DNA of 64,000 bases from an uncultured Planctomycetaceae bacterium (GCA_963833985.1 CAWIAD010000002.1:5312001-5376000); one strand, 5' to 3'; numbered from the stretch's first letter, positions 3,776-61,567 are shown. The notes: generated by a model not told the origin, from the letters alone. Translations and numbers: made by a program.

Positions 3776-5851
3776 TCAGAACGGCGGTGGAACGGCCGCG
3801 TCTGGGAGCGAGGGAACTTCCCGGCTCGTCAATTCGACATCTCCGTCCAGTGGTGTGCGCAGGCGGATGCCGCGATAATGGGCAATCCGCTGGGGACCCT
3901 CACGGAACCGGCTCTTGCTGAGTTCTGGAATGGCTGCATGGAGGTCGCGACCGAAGGCCGGCTCGTCACCAATGGCGTCGCGGCCTTGCTCCTGGCACCA
4001 GCTTCGCCAGGCGTCGTAGAGTGCCGCGACTGACACCTGTTCACCGGCACCGAGGACACAACGATCGCGCAGAAACGCTCCGATGGGGCTGCCCAGGTCC
4101 TCCATCGCGGCCATGAGAGCGCGGCCCGATTGCGGCTGCAAGAACCGCCCCCGCTCCCTGAGGCGCTGCCAGCCCTCCAGGGCCCAGAGCAGGATGCCCG
4201 GCAGCTCCCGGAGCAACCGTTCGTACAGGCCCGTATCTTCGCGGTCGTAGAACGATCGGGTGAACCGCAGCAGGATGAGCCGGCTCGCCAGGGCCCCGCT
4301 GGCATCACGTAACCGCGGCAGCTCATTGGAGATGAGCACGAAGCGCGTGGGCAGCCGGCCCGTCCAGGCCGGCAAGTGTTTGCGATCGATGGTCTGGTCG
4401 TCCTCGCCGCTGATCGAGAGCAAGCATTCCACGATGGCGGCATTGTCGGGCCGGCTGGAAAGCCGGGCGTCCGGAAAGATGGCCACCGGTTTGTCGATCA
4501 GCACGGACAGCCCGAACGGCCGTGCCAGAGTCGAAAGGGTTGGATTCGCGACGTTATTCGCCCCCACGAGCGCCTTGAGCACCCGCGCGATGGTTCCCCG
4601 GCCCGACCGCTTCGGGCCCACCAGCATGGCGATCTTCTGCTGACGCGTGTCCGTGGTCAGCAGGTAGCCGAACCACTCCTGCAAGCAGGCAATGCTCTCG
4701 ACGTCGTCTTCCCAGATCTGCCGCAGGAACGCCAGCCATTCCGCGGGCTCGCTCGCTCCGGGCACGAAATCGTAGTCCAGGGCGAAGCCGTTGAAGAACT
4801 CCGGCGTCGCCGCCAGCGTGCATGGGCGGCCCTCCACAAAAGAGGGCAGGTGAACTAGCCCGTTGCGTGCTGGCAAGATCTCCTGGACGGGCCATGGTGC
4901 GGCCCCGGCCGCATCCGGGCGGCCCGCCACCCAGGCTGGCTGCCGGGGACACTCGCTGGTGGGCACGAGGACCAGCCCCGTGATGGCCTGGACCACGTCG
5001 CTCACCATGCGCCCGGTGACCGGGATGGGCCGGAGAATCCGCTGGACGCTCGGAGAGCCGGGAGAATCCTCCCGTTTATGAAGGCGCGCTTCCATCTCCG
5101 CCTTGTATAAACGGTCGAATTCGCCGGCGAGGAATTGCGAAAGCCGTGCGCGAACCTCACTCATGGGAAGCGTGCGGTAGGCACATCCATCCCATGAATA
5201 AAACAGATCGCGCCAGTACCGCAGTCCGATCCCTCCCGGAAACGTGAAGTGGGCGTCCAGGAAGAGACGGGCCAGGCGGTGCGGGTTGGTCTCCTGGCCC
5301 ACCGGGCAGACGACGCCAGCGGCCTGGCCCGCGCGCGGCCTGGCTGCGCGGCCGCCTGCCGGCAGGGACGGCGGCCTGCCCGCGGGCGGCGGTTTCCTGT
5401 CTGATCTGAGATATCCCCTGGCGCGATCGTCGGCCGTCTTGTCAGCGCTTCTGAGCTTGTGCTCCAGCTCCTTGGGGCCCCAGGGAGGCAAGCACCGCTG
5501 GTTCCATTCCAGGAGGAACGGCCGGGCCTCGTCGATGGAGAGCCCGAACCCCTTGACGAGCACGCAGGCGACGTGGAAGGTGCGGTCATGGCCGCGCTCG
5601 CCAGAGACGGCGGGGGGAATGCGGGACAGGTAGGTGGCGATTCGCCGCGGCAGGGTGGTCGAGCGGTCATCGTGCCGGAGCGGCCCGGCCGGGGTCTTCG
5701 CCGGGTGGGAACCGGTCTGATCCGGCAAGGCCGGAGTGGGCCGCCGGGTACGAAGCCACGCGACAAGATCGAGAGGCAAGAGGGGAAGGGCAGTTCGTGA
5801 AGCTCCGCCCGGCAGTGGCTCCGGGCGGCTGTTCTCGGGGTGCATGGTCAT
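3776..5851 (-). CDS. Phage/plasmid P4-family (D5-like SF3) helicase with N-terminal PriCT-like domain
   Basis: 'LQEWFGYLL..QQKIAMLVGPKRSGRGT' (Walker A variant), 'LISNELPRL..GALASRLILLRF', N-terminal 'PPAVSGERGHDRTFHVAC..WNQRCLPPW'. Confidence 0.85.
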   Translation of the reverse strand: MTMHPENSRPEPLPGGASRTALPLLPLDLVAWLRTRRPTPALPDQTGSHPAKTPAGPLRHDDRSTTLPRRIATYLSRIPPAVSGERGHDRTFHVACVLVKGFGLSIDEARPFLLEWNQRCLPPWGPKELEHKLRSADKTADDRARGYLRSDRKPPPAGRPPSLPAGGRAARPRAGQAAGVVCPVGQETNPHRLARLFLDAHFTFPGGIGLRYWRDLFYSWDGCAYRTLPMSEVRARLSQFLAGEFDRLYKAEMEARLHKREDSPGSPSVQRILRPIPVTGRMVSDVVQAITGLVLVPTSECPRQPAWVAGRPDAAGAAPWPVQEILPARNGLVHLPSFVEGRPCTLAATPEFFNGFALDYDFVPGASEPAEWLAFLRQIWEDDVESIACLQEWFGYLLTTDTRQQKIAMLVGPKRSGRGTIARVLKALVGANNVANPTLSTLARPFGLSVLIDKPVAIFPDARLSSRPDNAAIVECLLSISGEDDQTIDRKHLPAWTGRLPTRFVLISNELPRLRDASGALASRLILLRFTRSFYDREDTGLYERLLRELPGILLWALEGWQRLRERGRFLQPQSGRALMAAMEDLGSPIGAFLRDRCVLGAGEQVSVAALYDAWRSWCQEQGRDAIGDEPAFGRDLHAAIPELSKSRFREGPQRIAHYRGIRLRTPLDGDVELTSREVPSLPDAAVPPPF

Positions 5852-52247: not shown

Positions 52248-53090
52248 TCAGGCTTCGACGAGTCGCTGAAGCTCGCGCCACTCCGGGACCCAGTCGCCGA
52301 TGTCATCCGTCATTCGTTCAATACCGATCAAAACCCTCTCGAGGAAAACCTGGGCACTGGGGAAACCAAGCTCCCTGAGTTTGGCGTCAATCGACAGCAA
52401 TAGATCCTTTCCAGAAAATGCGTAGAGAAACGAAGCGTGGCGCGCGCCTCCTTGTAGGAACTCAGGGAGGAACGACGTGAACTTTTGCTCAACGTCGTCA
52501 CAGTCTATGGTCTGAGATTTTGCATGTCTGTCTACAGTCAGCCGGAGACCGGTCCTGCAACTTGGCTCATCGAGAGAATCCGGGAATGGGTGCCTCTGTC
52601 TTCCGCGTGCCTTGCCGAAGCACGAGGGTAGATCGACAAATCTGACCCGGCTTGAGGCGGGTGTCGTGCGGGCGGCCTGGTACGGACCAAGCCGATCTCG
52701 GGCTTCCTCGAGCATGGTCCTGTAGAGATTGCCTGCCGGCGCCGCATCGCTGCCCAGCAGGCTCAAAGCCGGGATGACCACATCCGGATCCAGAAGATAA
52801 TTCTCGATTTCCTTCCTCTCCCAGCGCCACCCGAAGTGAATTCGCCCGTCTGAGTTGGTCCACGCTCTGGGGTGGTCCGTCGGCTGCTGCCACGGTTCGA
52901 CGAAGTCCCCGTCGAGCAGCCCAAAGACGGTCTGCCGGCCCAGCGCTTCGCGGCGGGCAATGACCTTGCTGCCCATGCTGTACTTTCCACCCTGGGGCAG
53001 AACCAGGCATCGGCCGGCGAGCAGCTTCGTGAACACTCGCACATCCGGGCTGTTCGGACCTCCCTCACAGAGAAGCAAGTCTACAGGCAC
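52248..53090 (-). CDS. TOPRIM/DUF4435-like protein (AriB-like)
   Basis: 'LLCEG', 'LLDGDF', 'WERKEIENYLL', 'SGKDLL'. Start overlaps the ATPase stop. Confidence 0.65.
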   Translation of the reverse strand: MPVDLLLCEGGPNSPDVRVFTKLLAGRCLVLPQGGKYSMGSKVIARREALGRQTVFGLLDGDFVEPWQQPTDHPRAWTNSDGRIHFGWRWERKEIENYLLDPDVVIPALSLLGSDAAPAGNLYRTMLEEARDRLGPYQAARTTPASSRVRFVDLPSCFGKARGRQRHPFPDSLDEPSCRTGLRLTVDRHAKSQTIDCDDVEQKFTSFLPEFLQGGARHASFLYAFSGKDLLLSIDAKLRELGFPSAQVFLERVLIGIERMTDDIGDWVPEWRELQRLVEA

Positions 53091-54175
53091 AGTCGTCCTC
53101 CCGGCAGCCTGTAGATCTGCTCCCTGCTGAAGACGCTACTGATGGCTTCCGAGTGAGTCGTCAAGATGAACTGGGAGCAAGGCGCCAGGGCGGGCAAGGC
53201 CGACAGCAACGCTTGGGCCAGGGGAGGATGAAGATTCAAATCAAGCTCGTCGATCAGCACAACCGAATGACGGATTTGCTGCCGAACGAATTCGTACAGC
53301 AAGGGCAAGACTGCCTGTTCGCCCGCGGACATCTCCTCGATATCGTATGACCGATTCCCATCCTCGATGATGAAGTAGTAATCCTCCGGGGAGGGCACTC
53401 CACCACGGTACATGGGCTCGGGCATGCCGAAGGATCGCCCAGGGAAGACACGCTTGAAGCTGCGCTGAAGCTCGTCCAGGAAATCCACCTTGCCAGGTCC
53501 CCTGGAGAGCCGGTTCAGCTGCCACCGGTTGAGATGCTCGCGCAGACGCGCGACTCCCACCTGATAGCTTGGCCGTTCAGGGCCTTCCCGACCGCCGTTC
53601 CCTTCGCTCATGCTGGGAGGCGTTGCGAGGTTTCGGAACTGGTCAAACCAGAAGACTCCCGGCAGACGCCCGAACAGGTCTCGGGCAGCCGGATCGGTCT
53701 CCAGAAGCTGTGCGGCATACCAGCGACCCCGGAACTGGTAGAGTTCCGCCTGTGAACGAGCCGAGCAATGCTCGCCCTCGAGCCTGATCGTAACGACCCG
53801 GGAGTCACCCGGTTCAACGTAGACCAAATGCCTTTCAACTGTGGAGCGTGAACGGAACCAGCGGTCGGCCGCCTCCCGGGTGGCGTCGATCTCTTCCTGA
53901 GAAAAGTGCACTTCCAGTTCCACGGCGGGTCTGCCCCACCGCTCATAACGGCCGGAAACCCATCCGAGCCAGTGAAAGTCTTTGACACTTCTTGTGCGCC
54001 AGGATGCCAGCGACAGGCACAAGGCGATCGCTTGCAGAACCGTGGTCTTCCCCGTTCCATTATCGCCCAGCAGCAGGAACTGGTCCGCGATATCCTGGGT
54101 CAACGAATTCCGCAGCTCGATGTCCAGCGTCTCGAATCGCTTGAAATTCTCCAGGTGAATGGACGCAACTCTCAT
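53081..54175 (-). CDS. ABC/AAA_21-type ATPase (AriA-like)
   Basis: 'LENFKRF', GDNGTGKT, MSAGEQ, 'LIDELDLNLHP', 'ILTTHS'. Confidence 0.85.
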   Translation of the reverse strand: MRVASIHLENFKRFETLDIELRNSLTQDIADQFLLLGDNGTGKTTVLQAIALCLSLASWRTRSVKDFHWLGWVSGRYERWGRPAVELEVHFSQEEIDATREAADRWFRSRSTVERHLVYVEPGDSRVVTIRLEGEHCSARSQAELYQFRGRWYAAQLLETDPAARDLFGRLPGVFWFDQFRNLATPPSMSEGNGGREGPERPSYQVGVARLREHLNRWQLNRLSRGPGKVDFLDELQRSFKRVFPGRSFGMPEPMYRGGVPSPEDYYFIIEDGNRSYDIEEMSAGEQAVLPLLYEFVRQQIRHSVVLIDELDLNLHPPLAQALLSALPALAPCSQFILTTHSEAISSVFSREQIYRLPGGRLCL

Positions 54176-54498
54176 GGAGGTTCTCCGTGCATGAACGGTT
54201 GCTTCACCGTGAGGCGTGGAGAGTGAAATGTCGAGAGACACCTTGCTCGCCTCCCGGGCGAGCAGCCAGACACCCTTGCGGCTCATCGGCCAGCGCGACG
54301 CAACTCGGGCCGGCCTAATGCTCGGTCGGTTCCTGATGGGTCTGCATTCTACCCGGAATGCGTGCCGGCGGCATCATGCCCATAGACCCTGGTGGTGAGC
54401 GGTTTTCCGGCCGTTCTCGTTGAGTTGCCGTTCTCGAAAATCCTCTCCTCCGTTACGATCCGCGTCATCGGAGGTATTCCAGCAGGCCAGGGAAGGAC

Positions 54499-56109: not shown

Positions 56110-56189
56110 CAGTTGATTGGCAGTCGCACCGGCAGGGTCATGCGGATAGGGACATGCTGCCGGCGAGCCTTCCCGGTTTCCCAAAAGCC

Positions 56190-56388
56190 CTCTTCCTGGC
56201 ACACGTTTCCTTTCGCCTCATGCCTTCTCTCTCTTGATCCAGAAATTGGCACGATCGGAATCGTACCCCACGAGGGGAGCGCGGACGGCCCCTCTTCCTG
56301 GCACACGATTCCATTCGTGTCGGGATAAACTCACGGTCAACGAGAAACAGGATCGTCTCAAGATCTTGAGGCATCAAGGAGACACGAT
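56190..56388. repeat. REP-like palindrome cluster; last copy split by the intron
   Basis: GGCACGATCGGAATCGTACC 56248-56267; CACACGATTCCATTCGTGT 56302-56320; half-site GACACGAT 56381-56388. Confidence 0.8.
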
Positions 56389-56931
56389 GTAGAGTCGAGG
56401 TGTGGCGCGGTGGGCTCGAGTCGATGGCTCGGCTGGGCCTCGTTTCCACACCCCGCTCATCAAACTGGACGGGCGGTTTTCCCGCATCCAGCTTTCGGAC
56501 AAGGCTTGTCTCATCGGTTGAGTTCACACGTTCGCTCACGAAACCATCGCGGCTAGGTTCGTTGCAGCTGGTAAAGATGCAACTCCTGGTGCAGGTATCT
56601 GTCAGGGTAGCGTCTGAGCCCCTGACCCGGCACCTTGAACTTCGCACACAACCACTGACGTACCCGGTAGCGGACGTGGTGGTTGACTTGGCGATAGGCT
56701 GGGCTCACCGTTCCGATGCGAAAATAGTTGGACCAACCGCGTAACTTGCGATTGATCCGACCAATCTGCATCTCGACGTCCTGTCCAGTGGTCTGGCGCG
56801 TCGTCATCGCACTGATCTCGCTGCACAGCCGAATGATCTTCTTCCGCGATGGGCGTGACCCTATGTAGGATCGGCCCGTTCGTCGGTCGTAGTTCCGGCC
56901 GAGGGTATAACCCAGAAAGTCGAACGTCTCC

Positions 56932-58806
56932 TCAGGCAGGTGGCACAGCCGCGTCTTGGTCTCGTTCACCGTTAACTTCAGCCTGGACATCATCTTCCGC
57001 ATCACCGTCATGGCCTCTTCGGCCGTGCCGCGACAGCAGATGACGAAGTCGTCCGCATAGTTGACGATTCGCGCGACCAGACGCCGCTCGTGTCCACCAG
57101 TCTTCCATCCCTTCACAAATCGTCGCATGTAGATGTTGGACAACAATGGTGAGATCACGCCCCCAACAATGTTGCGAACTACGTTGTTGGGGGCCTTTCT
57201 CAAAAGGGGACGGACTGACCCGATACACGATGCGGACCTCCTGCTCGTCGATCTCGACCTTCTTCACCAAGGCCCGAACCACCTCCCGTCGCGTGGCCCA
57301 GTCCGGCTCTTGCAACCCTTGCGAGACGCGACGTGCGAACTCCTCCAACTGACCGATCACCAGTCGCAATTCCGCCTCTTGGGCGGCCTCGCCGATTCGT
57401 TGTCGATGCTCCTCCGCCAATCTCGAGAGGCGCGTCCTTGCCGCCGAGATCCGGGGCTCGAACTCCGATTTGTCGAGCAACCCGTCGCCGTAAGCATCGA
57501 TTAATCGAGAAATCATCTTTTTCACATTATTTATCAATTTGCCGAGATGCTCCACCTCCTGATTCGGCCCGCCCTGGGCACCCTGCAGCCGCCGCTCGTA
57601 CTCCTCCCGGACCCGCTCCGGCTCGGACAGGAGACCTCGTAAGTCCTCCCAGACGGCAGCGTCAAGGATATCGGTGCGGATCTGCTTGTTCCAGCAGAGG
57701 CGCTGCCCGCCGAAACGATAGGCGTCAGAGCCCGTGCAACGGTAGTACGCGTAGCGGACCCTACCCTTGCCCTCGAACGCGGCTCGGCTCGTCGGCTTGC
57801 CGTAGCAGCCGTAGCCGCAGCGCTTGCAGACGACCAGGCCCTGGAGCAGATATCGGCCACCGCCGGGCCGGTCGCGACGGCGTTGCCGGTTCTCTTCAAG
57901 CTGGGCCTGGACAGCCAGGAAGAGGTCTTCGCTCACCAGCCCGGGGACTTCAATGAAGATTTGATCTTCCGAGGATGTATCAACCCGTGAGACCGGTCGC
58001 CGGGAGTGTTCGGGGCGGCCTCGCTGCGGGCGGAGGCGTTGAGGTTTGAACTCACCTGAGCGCGTCTTGCCGAAGGCCGCGGTCCCCTTGTAGGCAGGGT
58101 TCTTGAGGATCAACCAGACCGTCGCGCAATCCCAGGCCGATTTCCCGGTCCGCGTCGGGATACTGTCGCGCCGGAGGCGTCGGCACACCTCGCCGATCGA
58201 GCACCGTTCCTGACCCACCCATTCGAAGATCTTCCGCACGACCCGGGACTCTTCAGCGAGGACCTGATAACGCGCCTCGCCACCTCCCTCGTGCTTGCCG
58301 ATGTAACGGTAGCCGTACGGCGCGCCGCTGAGGACGTTGACCGAACCGCGGCGGGCGGCGTGTTGCTTGCCCCTGCGGCAACGCTCCATGATCTTGGCGC
58401 GCTCGTATTCCGCGATCATTCCCTGGACCTGAAGCAGCAGGTCGGCTTCCGGACTGCGGCCGACGGGGTTGCGCAAGAAGACGACCTCGACACCGCACCG
58501 GATAAGTTCCTCAAGGATCAAGACCTGATAGGCATACTTGCGTGAAAGTCGATCCGGATCGAGCATATAGAGGCGGTCGATGGCTCCAGCGGCGGCTTGG
58601 TCCCGAAGTCGCTCGAGTGCCGGTCGGGCCAGGATGTAACCGCTGACGCCGTCGTCCACGAAGTGCAGTTCGGGCTCGCATTCCAAGCCATCAGTGGCGA
58701 TCCGCTGAGTGACCGCCTCGAGCTGGCTGGCGATCGTGTCCTCCTTCTCCTGCTGCTCCCCCGAAACCCGGGCGTAGAGCGCCACGCGGAGATTGTCCGT
58801 GATCAT
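56932..58806 (-). CDS. Large serine recombinase
   Basis: 'YARVS' catalytic motif, 'DDGVSG..RPALERL', 'DRLSR', recombinase domain 'LKNPAYKG', zinc ribbon 'LLQGLVVCKRCG..YYRC', coiled coil. Confidence 0.95.
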   Translation of the reverse strand: MITDNLRVALYARVSGEQQEKEDTIASQLEAVTQRIATDGLECEPELHFVDDGVSGYILARPALERLRDQAAAGAIDRLYMLDPDRLSRKYAYQVLILEELIRCGVEVVFLRNPVGRSPEADLLLQVQGMIAEYERAKIMERCRRGKQHAARRGSVNVLSGAPYGYRYIGKHEGGGEARYQVLAEESRVVRKIFEWVGQERCSIGEVCRRLRRDSIPTRTGKSAWDCATVWLILKNPAYKGTAAFGKTRSGEFKPQRLRPQRGRPEHSRRPVSRVDTSSEDQIFIEVPGLVSEDLFLAVQAQLEENRQRRRDRPGGGRYLLQGLVVCKRCGYGCYGKPTSRAAFEGKGRVRYAYYRCTGSDAYRFGGQRLCWNKQIRTDILDAAVWEDLRGLLSEPERVREEYERRLQGAQGGPNQEVEHLGKLINNVKKMISRLIDAYGDGLLDKSEFEPRISAARTRLSRLAEEHRQRIGEAAQEAELRLVIGQLEEFARRVSQGLQEPDWATRREVVRALVKKVEIDEQEVRIVYRVSPSPFEKGPQQRSSQHCWGRDLTIVVQHLHATICEGMEDWWTRAASGRANRQLCGRLRHLLSRHGRRGHDGDAEDDVQAEVNGERDQDAAVPPA

Positions 58807-59171
58807 GGTTTGTCAAACCCCCCCGACCTTGGACTGGATAGTGTGGACCACAGTCGCGTGGTTGCGGCTGGGTCGCGGCCGATCCAGGCGCTGCGAAACG
58901 ACCGGGATCAAGACCTGATATGCACGCGCGATCAATTGCTCCTGAAGCCGAGTGAACTCGAAGTGGCGGGTGACAGGAGGACTGAACGTGGGCCTCCGTG
59001 GGGACGTGATCATGTCGACTCCTCCTCTCCGAGAGCGCGGCCGCCAGCCTGCCTTGGATCGGGATCGAGTCGGGGCTGCCATCCGTGCCCGTACTTCGGT
59101 CGAAGCCGCGATCTGGAAATGACAGAGTCAGGAATCAGGGACGATTTTGCAACATTGTTGGGGGCGTGATC
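57153..59171 (-). mobile_element. 2.0 kb large-serine-recombinase mini-element with perfect 23 bp terminal inverted repeats
   Basis: GATCACGCCCCCAACAATGTTGC (57153-57175) and GCAACATTGTTGGGGGCGTGATC (59149-59171). Removal leaving one GATC restores the RT frame. Confidence 0.9.
58813..59013 (-). CDS. Small (66 aa) accessory protein of the recombinase element
   Basis: Strong RBS GGAGAGGAGGAG before ATG 59013; ends 6 nt upstream of the recombinase start. Confidence 0.6.
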   Translation of the reverse strand: MITSPRRPTFSPPVTRHFEFTRLQEQLIARAYQVLIPVVSQRLDRPRPSRNHATVVHTIQSKVGGV

Positions 59172-60426
59172 GGTGCACCTTGCGGTGTACCCATCCCCTG
59201 GTCTTTATTCCGGGTCGTTCGATGGCGCTGCCCCTTCCCGTCGGTTTCTTCCACCGGTGTTTCCAGCCACATCTTGATCAGCCGCAGGACGCGACCGTCG
59301 CTGATGCGCCGTGACGCCGATTTCATTAACTCGGAATGGGGTATGCTATCGAAATATCCAGATAAGTTCGCGTCCACCACCTCGGTGTGCCCCGTCTTGA
59401 GCAGCCGTTCGACTTCGCGGACGGCGTCCAGGGCGCTGCGCTCCGGGCGGTAGGCGTGTTGTTCCGGCTCCAGGTCGGCCTCGAAGATCGGCTCCAAGAC
59501 CAGCACCGCAGCCATCTGCACCACACGATCCTTGATGCAAGGAATGCCCAGCGGCCTTTGCTTGCCGTCCCCTTTGGGGATGTACACGCGCCGCACCGCC
59601 TGGGGTTGATACGTCTCCTTACGAAGTTGTTCCGCCAGTTCGTCCAGCCATCGTTCCTTCCCGGACGCCTCGATGTCGGCGAAACTCTGGCCGTCGATCC
59701 CCGGCGCGCCGCCGTTGGCACGGCAGCGTTCGTAGGCGAATCCCAGAACGTCACGTCGATAAATCTTGTCGTACAGGACGTAGAACCGATAGTTGGGCGC
59801 GTTCTTCGCTTTGGTGTGCAACGCCGTCTGCAACTTCCCGACCTTCAGTGGAGGTGATAGACTCACGCCAATCTCCCGGCTGTCTGCCGCTTGTTGCGTT
59901 GACCTTGAACCAAGGCCCCTTCCCTCGACCGGAGTTACCCGGCGTCGACGGTACTACGGGCCTCTCCGCCACCCCAGGCAGCCCGGCCGGTCCCTCGCGG
60001 GCGTCCGGTTGAGGGTCACGCGCCCTCACCGCTTGGGGTTTCCCGTGTTGTGTTGATCTCCGTGTGCCGACATGCCGTCGTCAATACCCCGGTGGCCCGC
60101 TGGGTTCTGATCGCTCGTGGGGCGGCCTATTCCAACCGTTTCCCTTTCATCCCCAGCGACGGCGGCCTTCCCCATATTCCAGCAAGGTCGGCGACCACAT
60201 TGGACTTTTCGAGGCCTGCTCAACGTTCACTCGCGTTACGGCCTGTCGGTTCGCTGCATCGCCAAGCGACACATCTGTCTCGAAGGCTCCGACGGTTTCG
60301 TCTCCTCCACCGCCGCTCCGATAGCTACCGGCTGGAGCGACCCAGTTGCCGGGTGGGAGTTACACCCACTGAAGACCAACACCTTTCCACGGCGCACCGG
60401 AATCGTGTCCCACGAGGGAAAAACCC

Positions 60427-61450
60427 TCAGCCCTTCGCCGCCATGGCGCTGATGCGCACCACGCCGTCGTGGTGGGCCGTGGCGAGGTGGATGCCGTCCG
60501 GGTGAAGATCCAGCGCACGGGCGCTGGTGGGGAGCGCGAACTTGAAGAACTCGCTCTCCTGGTCGGGCCGCGTGAAGAACAGGAACCCGCCGCTGGTCCC
60601 GCCGACCACGCTGATGAGGAAGCCCTCGGGATGGAAGCGCACACCCCAGGACACGCCCTTGATGTCCTCTTTGGGATGGGAGAGCGCCTTGAACGCGCCG
60701 GTCTTCCAGTCGAAGACCAGTACCGCCGGCGTGCTCACCGCGCCCAGCGGGTTGCTGGCGTTGATCAACCCGGCGCAGGCCAGGTAGGCACCATCGCGTG
60801 AGAAGCTGAGGTCGCGCACGCCGCCGTAATCGACCCCCTGCCCTCCCTCGTAGAGATGCAGCCGGGCCGCGTCAAGCCGGCGCGCTTCCTTGCCGGTGCG
60901 CACGTCCCACTGGATCACCAGCCCCATGAGGTCGGCCGAGATCAAAAACTTGCCGTCGGCCGTGTAGCTCACCTGGTAGACCGGCCGGGCATGGCCGGGC
61001 AGCTCCATCTCAAGCGTGCCGTCCGCGAGCGACCAGAGCTTGACCCGGCCATCGTTCCCGCAACTGGCGGCCTGCTTCCCGTCCGGGCGAATAGCCAGCG
61101 CCGCGCACCCAGCCGTGATGTGCCATGATCGTGCGCAGGGGTTTCGGGGCGGCGGCCGCTCTCGCATCCGCACCCGCATCCGGCCACCAGATCAGCCGGC
61201 CGTCGGTCCCGCCGCTCAGGAGCGTCTTGCCGTCGGGAGTCACGGCCAGGGCGAACACCCAGCCGTCATGCGCGGCGAAGCTCACGGGCCTGGCCCTGGC
61301 AGGATCGGCACTCCAGTCCCAGCGCACGACCGTATCGTCCTCGGAGCCGGCGAAGAGGTAGCGGCCCGTGGGATCGAACCGGCACGACACCAGCGGCTTG
61401 CCGTGCTTCAGGTCCTGCACGACGCGCGTTTTCTCAGGAGTTGCACCCAT
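60427..61450 (-). CDS. WD40 repeat protein (frameshift near 61100)
   Basis: 'HDGWVFALAVTPDGKTLLSGGTDGRLIWW', 'GHARPVYQVSYTADG'. Confidence 0.85.
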
Positions 61451-61470: not shown

Positions 61471-61538
61471 ATCTGATCTGACCCGATCTGATCTGATCTG
61501 ATCTGATCTGATCTGATCTGATCTGATCTGATCTGATC
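61471..61538. repeat. (ATCTG)n pentanucleotide tandem repeat
   Basis: Two copies at 61471-61480, then ten perfect copies at 61486-61535. Confidence 0.95.
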
Positions 61539-61567
61539 CGCTCCGCTGCCGTTGCCAGGCCGCTCGC

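Follow-up and report, generated by a model that had tools for sequence, protein, structure and literature searches.

A two-gene serine recombinase element at one codon of a group II intron reverse transcriptase gene in a planctomycete genome

In a 64,000-nucleotide (nt) stretch from the genome of an uncultured Planctomycetaceae bacterium (GCA_963833985.1, CAWIAD010000002.1:5312001-5376000; hereafter the window, to which all positions refer), the reverse transcriptase (RT) gene of a group II intron is split by a short unit that carries a large serine recombinase gene and a small open reading frame (ORF). This locus raises the question of whether the RT gene was interrupted by accident or by an element that selects it and, in the latter case, how the element moves and what it does to the intron. 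Comparison of the window with the rest of the genome (G000, contigs C1 and C2) and with related elements in other bacteria showed that the unit is an element of about 2 kb with defined ends and a 2-bp core, that it occupies one exact codon of the RT gene in both orientations, and that it has recently spread to multiple copies. The recombinase is likely to excise the element as a circle and to re-insert it by recombination at the 2-bp core in either orientation.

An initial annotation of the window had described a 2019-bp unit bounded by perfect 23-bp inverted repeats, and in fact 23 of 23 terminal bases match at 57153-59171. The perfect 42-bp palindrome proposed for the excised junction was also reproduced when the ends were joined in silico. 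The four bases GATC are shared with the target at this copy as described, but they are not a 4-bp core: one copy outside the intron (C1:1741772) reads CATC...GATG, another reads AA...AT, and cores among the relatives include CT, AG, GT, AC and CG. The core is therefore the 2 bp AT and the element proper is confined to 57156-59168 (Table 1), positions 57153 (G) and 59171 (C) being target bases. Comparison of filled with empty sites and of 34 RT junctions from relatives likewise points to a 2-bp core. The element contains only two genes, as annotated, with no TnpB-sized ORF apart from the recombinase, and a scan of 56900-59400 for sigma-70 promoters returned 0 sites. An extra subterminal copy of TTGTTGGGGG is indeed present, but it lies in coding sequence and is found at nine of ten or more bases in only 20 of 57 relatives, all of the planctomycete group, which does not support a functional site across the family.

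The genome contains 11 full copies of the element with at least 99.9% identity. Nine of them occupy the same position of the same intron, seven in the orientation seen in the window and two reversed, and the other two are solo insertions; the start of contig C2 is a tenth intron-element composite, cut by the contig end. Of the 12 intron copies, 10 are occupied, at different exon sites and with precise intron ends. Because the two empty copies of the same intron both encode a full uninterrupted RT of 432 amino acids (aa), the interruption in the window is not a matter of chance. The recombinase gene is intact in 10 of the 11 full copies. A deleted remnant of an older pair (C2:4627320-4628480, L114; intron about 95%, element 81%) retains the same junction. 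The two orientations, the remnant and the two solo copies together call for at least five separate insertion events. Scored with a matrix derived from 34 RT sites, the solo targets fall within the top 0.05% and 0.5% of positions in the genome. Note that the stretch from intron exon 1 to domain V is internally scrambled in L114. Composite copy D carries in its 3' part a further insertion sequence (IS) of 1.3 kb with a 411-codon frame (C2:2147541-2148825; L112:3976-5208), presumably ISAs1-like, which makes it the second parasite in that intron; 3 kb downstream there is an intact, empty intron copy.

The host intron was identified by matches to RF02003 and RF00029 above the gathering score, and its flanks vary exactly at GTGCG and CTAC. 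Both halves of the split gene match TIGR04416, and the insertion cuts the RT to 243 aa, before YADD. Removal of the element in silico with one GATC kept gave an open 432-aa group II RT with GTPQGAPISPLLSN and YADD, and the two empty copies encode the same protein, so the annotated restoration of the RT motif holds. The position of the element between the Rfam D1-D4 and DV matches is consistent with its proposed location in domain IV. The intron itself is inserted in the loop of a palindromic repeat, for which 149 matches were counted on both strands at up to three mismatches; contig C1 has 58 matches and shuffled C1 has 0, which bears out the nesting of element in intron in repeat. TGGAAT at intron position 217 is the complement of the 5' exon and is a putative exon-binding site 1 (EBS1). 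The homing site of the intron is a palindromic GACACGAT...ATCGTGTC repeat that is abundant genome-wide, and several copies of it flank the intron at 56188-56317 and 60398-60418.

To examine the choice of target among relatives, we scanned genome contigs. The scan confirmed 548 of 593 candidate stretches, with at least 79 loci at 43-97% identity among the matches listed; both ends were called in 57 of these 79, one end in 16 and none in six, and the target counts below use the 57. In 34 of the 57, the N-terminal half of an RT gene lies on one side and the C-terminal half on the other, and in all 34 the break falls on bases 1-2 of the codon that precedes SP (PQGxx[I/L]SP), 17 in each orientation. 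The flanks of homologous recombinases are thus RT halves split at the motif in these 34 relatives, as expected for an IS-sized element targeting a conserved RT motif, but 16 of the 57 have no RT motif on either flank. The host RT segments are about 27-85% identical to that of the window, and the hosts belong to Planctomycetota, Chloroflexota, Pseudomonadota and Acidobacteriota. In the family of the present host, 38 of 121 genomes match at E <= 0.001, 25 of them below 1e-30, and 48 plasmid records match at E <= 1e-60, among which the TOL plasmid pWW53 has a copy at the same RT motif. A second module of small ORF and recombinase lies just downstream of that RT-inserted element (L080:5142-7505).

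The cores at the two ends are identical in 24 of the 34 RT insertions and different in 10, so a core mismatch appears to be tolerated. Both orientations are indeed used, as had been supposed from the symmetric core (seven and two here, 17 and 17 among relatives), but a palindromic GATC is not necessary for this, since the cores differ in those 10 and both orientations also occur at CT/AG and GT/AC cores. CC is found at positions 5-6 outward from the core in both RT half-sites and at both element ends. Judging from these sequences, the recombinase very probably reads the RT motif as a pseudo-symmetric bacterial attachment site (attB) and tolerates mismatch in the core. Altogether, 41 of the 57 relatives show the RT motif next to one end or both (the 34 pairs and seven others), and five of these seven carry the same half on both sides, which suggests rearrangement between copies. 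The N-terminal half is found on both sides in L007, L009, L011 and L052 and the C-terminal half in L014, L058 being a further case; some are perfect inverted duplications, and such elements suggest genome-rearranging recombination between copies.

Some branches of the family have other targets. A well-supported branch lies in IS256 transposase genes (by Pfam matches in L053 and L055, and by motif only in L056), with insertion near the 3' end of the gene, as also in plasmid matches H9 and H10. L068 occupies the 2-nt CG bulge in domain V of a group II intron, with an intact RT gene upstream (L068:3612-3643 and 5613-5660); its ends (TACGGTT...) resemble the 3' strand of domain V, and L036, L058 and L059 of the same branch lie at other sites. 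L002 lies within a sulfatase gene, and directly beside L029 there is a truncated IS3-type integrase core. The target of L046 had no Pfam match and may be IS5-like, to judge by a motif. L006, L010, L012, L077 and L079 lie in short palindromic repeat-like sequences, not in genes.

The recombinase has Resolvase, Recombinase and Zn-ribbon domains above cutoff (PF00239, PF07508 and PF13408). Residues S15, D85, R86 and R89 (DRLxR) and C327, C330, C357 and C371 are invariant in 29 of 29 aligned sequences. Its fold matched SprA, LI and Bxb1, the nearest solved structures being SPbeta SprA and the A118/LI integrase. The ORF of the 66-aa protein has a strong ribosome-binding site at 59019-59027, and the protein was modelled as a single helix at residues 22-43. 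It gave no match in Pfam or NCBIfam and no fold match in the Protein Data Bank; when its homologues were compared with Pfam, no family matched more than one of 29 members, and atlas matches at 0.87-0.88 were 'hypothetical' proteins, to be taken as leads only and not as an identification.

Table 1. Positions of the element, its genes, the host intron and the exons in the window
Feature	Position	Strand	Support or remark
Element proper, 2013 bp between two 2-bp cores	57156..59168	-	11 genome copies with four different flank pairs, and 57 relatives
Crossover core AT at the recombinase 3' end; bases 1-2 of the Ile codon, PQGAP[I]SP	57154..57155	.	Genome copies and relatives
Crossover core AT at the other end	59169..59170	.	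Genome copies and relatives
20-bp terminal inverted repeat, putative half-site of the element's attachment site (attP), within the last recombinase codons	57156..57175	.	
20-bp terminal inverted repeat, putative attP half-site, element start	59149..59168	.	
Subterminal TTGTTGGGGG copy, clade-limited, inside recombinase coding sequence	57184..57193	+	
Large serine recombinase; 551 codons up to the element end, without a stop	57154..58806	-	Reads on to 56932 in the window copy
66-aa small protein (FEPxRL...L..AY..L.P), candidate directionality factor	58813..59013	-	Conserved in 53/57 relatives
Start-less 52-codon frame continuing the recombinase if the ends are joined; stop overlaps the ATG of the small ORF (ATGA)	59010..59168	-	
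Host group II intron (GTGCG...CTAC), 4009 bp including the element	56389..60397	-	Rfam and flanks
Rfam D1-D4-4, 98.9 bits	60231..60371	-	
Rfam DV/DVI, 41.2 bits	56414..56496	-	
5' half of the intron RT (through PQGAP)	59171..59866	-	243-aa truncated product in the interrupted copy
3' half of the intron RT (SPLLSN, YADD, maturase domain)	56553..57153	-	
5' exon, left arm of the targeted palindromic repeat	60398..60415	-	
3' exon, right arm of that palindromic repeat	56377..56388	-	

Within the element the recombinase gene lacks a stop codon, and it gains a conserved tail of about 52 residues only across the joined ends. In a set of 57 elements, which is partly different from the 57 loci used for the target counts, none has a stop codon in the recombinase frame before the element end, and in all 57 it continues, in the same register, through the 2-bp core and on from the first base of the opposite end. 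The tail frame is open for at least 28 codons in 56 of the 57, the other two frames in four and 18; when the elements were grouped into 21 clusters with less than 65% DNA identity, it was open in 20 clusters and the others in two and five, where shuffled sequences expect 7.5. Across phyla the tail peptide retains NNxAK, a hydrophobic strand and IxRxxL, and in many cases also YG, and its stop overlaps the start of the small ORF in 34 of 53 cases. The integrated copies in the genome instead end in arbitrary recombinase tails of 23-74 residues, and in the window copy the frame runs past the element end for 74 residues, out of frame, into the 3' half of the RT gene. Two natural read-through proteins were found: P0020, from a 1509-bp metagenome contig, is the recombinase with exactly the predicted tail, and P0005 is the recombinase with the tail and one extra codon. 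In an AlphaFold model of P0020 (26 sequences; mean predicted local distance difference test (pLDDT) score 74), tail residues 435-438 form a beta-strand (pLDDT about 71). Shin et al. (10.1101/2024.06.11.598349) proposed that extra C-terminal strands could block the binding site of the recombination directionality factor (RDF), and described small RDFs that are predicted to add strands to the same sheet. The split gene, with the 66-aa protein as a candidate excision factor, may thus be a directionality switch. The tail of the circle form would extend the zinc-ribbon domain by a beta-strand, mask the RDF site and promote integration, and the tail-less integrated form together with the 66-aa protein would excise the element; we put forward this division of labour between two protein forms tentatively, at slightly less than an even chance. 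The tail and the 66-aa protein were also considered as homologues, which was rejected since they have no profile similarity (probability 0.1%).

The occupied introns have their RT disabled in cis, while two intact introns encode RT. A single-nucleotide polymorphism (SNP) of the intron 16 bp from the core is C in seven of seven composites in the window orientation and A in four of four others, namely both reversed composites and both empty introns; the copy at the contig break is not covered. The exact probability of this linkage by chance is 1/330, or 1/36 among the occupied copies only. The linkage, the different exon sites and the precise intron ends favour copying of the intron and the element as a unit, and because the element lies in the ORF loop of the intron, the composites would be copied in this way. 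We consider it fairly probable that they were, either by retrohoming, with the two intact copies supplying RT, or by gene conversion. The element would then disable RT in cis while riding on the intron. More speculatively, the family might specialize in the least mutable sequences of other mobile elements (RT motif 4, the catalytic bulge of domain V and IS256 transposase), direct itself by a recombinase completed across its own attP, with an RDF-blocking strand in the circle that is absent once integrated, and be amplified inside intron RNA retrohomed in trans by intact introns; this combined picture is possible but doubtful.

Several observations weigh against parts of this account. As to the target, the 16 relatives without an RT motif on either flank do not conform to it, and a second RT gene in the genome, 35% identical, has a good site that is empty. 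As to copying as a unit, the other SNPs are mosaic (copies G and I share intron SNPs, F and I an element SNP, and D and E one), so recombination has taken place between copies, and the pattern does not amount to a clean retrohoming tree. As to the tail, synonymous bias in its frame is modest (proximal part 23:31, against 16:38 and 9:40 in the other frames; distal part 19:46), and a recombinase lies directly upstream in only two of 174 tail-bearing proteins checked. In the model of P0020 the partner of the tail strand is not visible in the output and the flanking linker is disordered, and the small protein, as mentioned, has neither a family nor a fold match. As to the circle, the end-to-end junction motif was not found in the genome or the fetched loci. 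No end-to-start joint was among the 15 joints listed, of 44, from four sequencing runs (best share 0.46), which, covering assembled contigs only, are uninformative on excision. A scan of metagenome contigs for the junction motif gave three matches, two of which are unrelated to the element. The third, L116 (WNFV01054752.1), is the only junction found in its DNA context and is a tandem of 39%-identical relatives rather than a free circle: two 2256-bp three-gene elements, 89% alike and each with an extra 119-codon frame, lie in a row, with the end of the first serving as insertion site of the second, and the junction reads through. A junction need not therefore mean a free circle, and P0020 and P0005 may be tandems too.

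How far do other explanations account for these data? A promiscuous serine recombinase transposon that survives in introns as harmless sites, with no real sequence targeting, would explain the solo and non-RT insertions (two of the 11 full copies here and 16 of the 57 relatives). However, the 34 paired RT insertions all share one exact point, two bases of a single codon, across highly diverse RTs, and even the solo sites resemble the RT site, which makes such a transposon extremely unlikely. The initial annotation had suggested a reversible off-switch for intron mobility, kept because excision restores RT on demand. Precise removal does restore an open RT, the cores match in 24 of the 34 RT insertions, and the recombinase remains intact in 10 of the 11 copies. 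On the other hand, neither regulation nor excision was observed and no regulatory gene or signal was found, RT is already supplied by the two intact introns, and the reversed, off-target and sulfatase-gene copies together with hybrid rearrangements are the behaviour of a selfish element. Occupancy of 10 of the 12 introns at different exon sites fits hitchhiking better than silencing, and we regard a regulated switch as very unlikely.

The remaining alternatives concern single steps. Each of the 10 occupied introns may have been hit separately, in which case the composites would be dead ends rather than copied units. The two orientations and the two solo sites prove that several insertions were independent, the SNPs of element and intron are discordant, and in one genome three different RT site sequences are occupied (L038-L040); the linked SNP, moreover, lies within the probable attB and could bias the orientation. 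Against such a bias, in the relative L004 the A allele goes with the window orientation and the family uses the two orientations 17:17, and the linkage of SNP and orientation (seven of seven versus none of four) speaks for units. Separate hits on all ten introns are thus somewhat unlikely. It is also conceivable that the open frame at the element start reflects a constraint on the DNA, such as a promoter or recombinase binding, and that the recombinase is indifferent to its tail, so that there is no switch. The arbitrary tails of the integrated copies, the poorly conserved distal tail, the modest synonymous bias and an early stop in the tail frame of L026 agree with this, whereas the frame stays open in 20 of 21 clusters less than 65% alike in DNA, the hydrophobic strand and I-x-R-x-x-L are kept across phyla, and in 34 of 53 the tail frame ends in an overlap with the start of the following gene. 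We judge a constraint at the DNA level alone to be unlikely, and retain the element that excises and re-inserts at the RT motif as the best explanation.

Among known systems, the clostridial elements Tn5397 (TndX) and Tn4451/Tn4453 (TnpX) are similar in that one large serine recombinase performs both integration and excision, as is likely here. Those elements are cargo-carrying and conjugative or mobilizable (21 kb in Tn5397) with a fixed GA core, in contrast to the present element of 2 kb, which has no cargo, 20-bp terminal inverted repeats and a variable core (AT, CT, GT, AC, CG), and which targets a mobile element. TndX is described as preferring a conserved protein-coding target (the Fic domain) with a central dinucleotide (PMC4430133). 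DUF4368 is reported to occur in 63% of the TndX/TnpX multi-targeting clade (PMC10083194); it had no match in our recombinase at E <= 0.001, although its absence alone does not exclude that clade. The phage-type large serine integrases (SPbeta SprA, A118/LI, Bxb1, phiC31) share the domain order, the fold, the 2-bp core, an attB inside a conserved gene and a small neighbouring gene as candidate RDF. They differ in that the attP of our element is near-perfectly palindromic and lies inside the recombinase gene, in that phage genes are absent and the spread is multi-copy and IS-like, and in that identical asymmetric cores fix their orientation, whereas here both orientations and mismatched cores (10 of 34) occur.

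A protein encoded across an attP is also changed at its C-terminus, by truncation, upon integration of phiRSS0 (ORF13; PMC3816273). ORF13 is a regulator, whereas here a serine recombinase is affected, in a minimal element in which the tail stop overlaps the start of a candidate RDF gene. The SSV1 integrase, a viral tyrosine recombinase, is likewise split by its own attP, and differs from the present case in enzyme and in element. The IS607 family is IS-sized and combines a serine recombinase, which crosses over at 2 bp, with TnpB; the present recombinase scores 26 against the NF033518 cutoff of 110, has a large-recombinase architecture, and is accompanied by terminal inverted repeats and no TnpB. 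Its scores for the CcrB, CcrC and XisF equivalogs were also below cutoff (104/900, 88/900 and 101/375). Elements that target other mobile elements include IS1111-attC, IS4321/IS5075 and the res-site hunters, which similarly insert in a conserved part of their target; the present case differs in its enzyme and in that an intron is preyed upon, and within this one family the target varies by branch between RT motif 4, intron domain V and IS256 transposase. In one study, some group II introns themselves target IS elements (PMC3522654). Our literature search found no description of this element family within its scope; ISfinder, the TIGER/Islander tables, the full Durrant recombinase-target database, and the pWW53/pDK1 and subscription papers fell outside it and could list the target. 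The accessible text and supplements of Durrant et al. (PMC10083194) contain no mention of RT or maturase and use 'intron' for human sites only.

Elsewhere in the window, a run of about 14 ATCTG pentamers lies between two genes (61471-61540), and a WD40-like repeat gene at 60427-61450 is apparently split in two frames (146 and 250 aa), possibly by a sequencing frameshift. At 52248-54286, the gene after one for an AAA/ABC-type ATPase encodes a 280-aa partner that contains a DGD motif, and we take the two to resemble ATPase-TOPRIM defence pairs.

Insertion by elements of this family is likely to be a frequent reason why group II intron RT genes are found in fragments, and would act as a natural brake on the spread of introns. 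Their degenerate codon-motif targets, mismatched cores, both orientations and target-switching branches are useful for learning the rules of target recognition, and the present genome goes beyond single-copy sightings in that filled, empty, flipped and off-target sites stand side by side. With just two genes, and with both protein forms supplied naturally from one of them, the element would also serve as a test system for the question of whether C-terminal extensions of serine integrases block the RDF site and set the direction of recombination.

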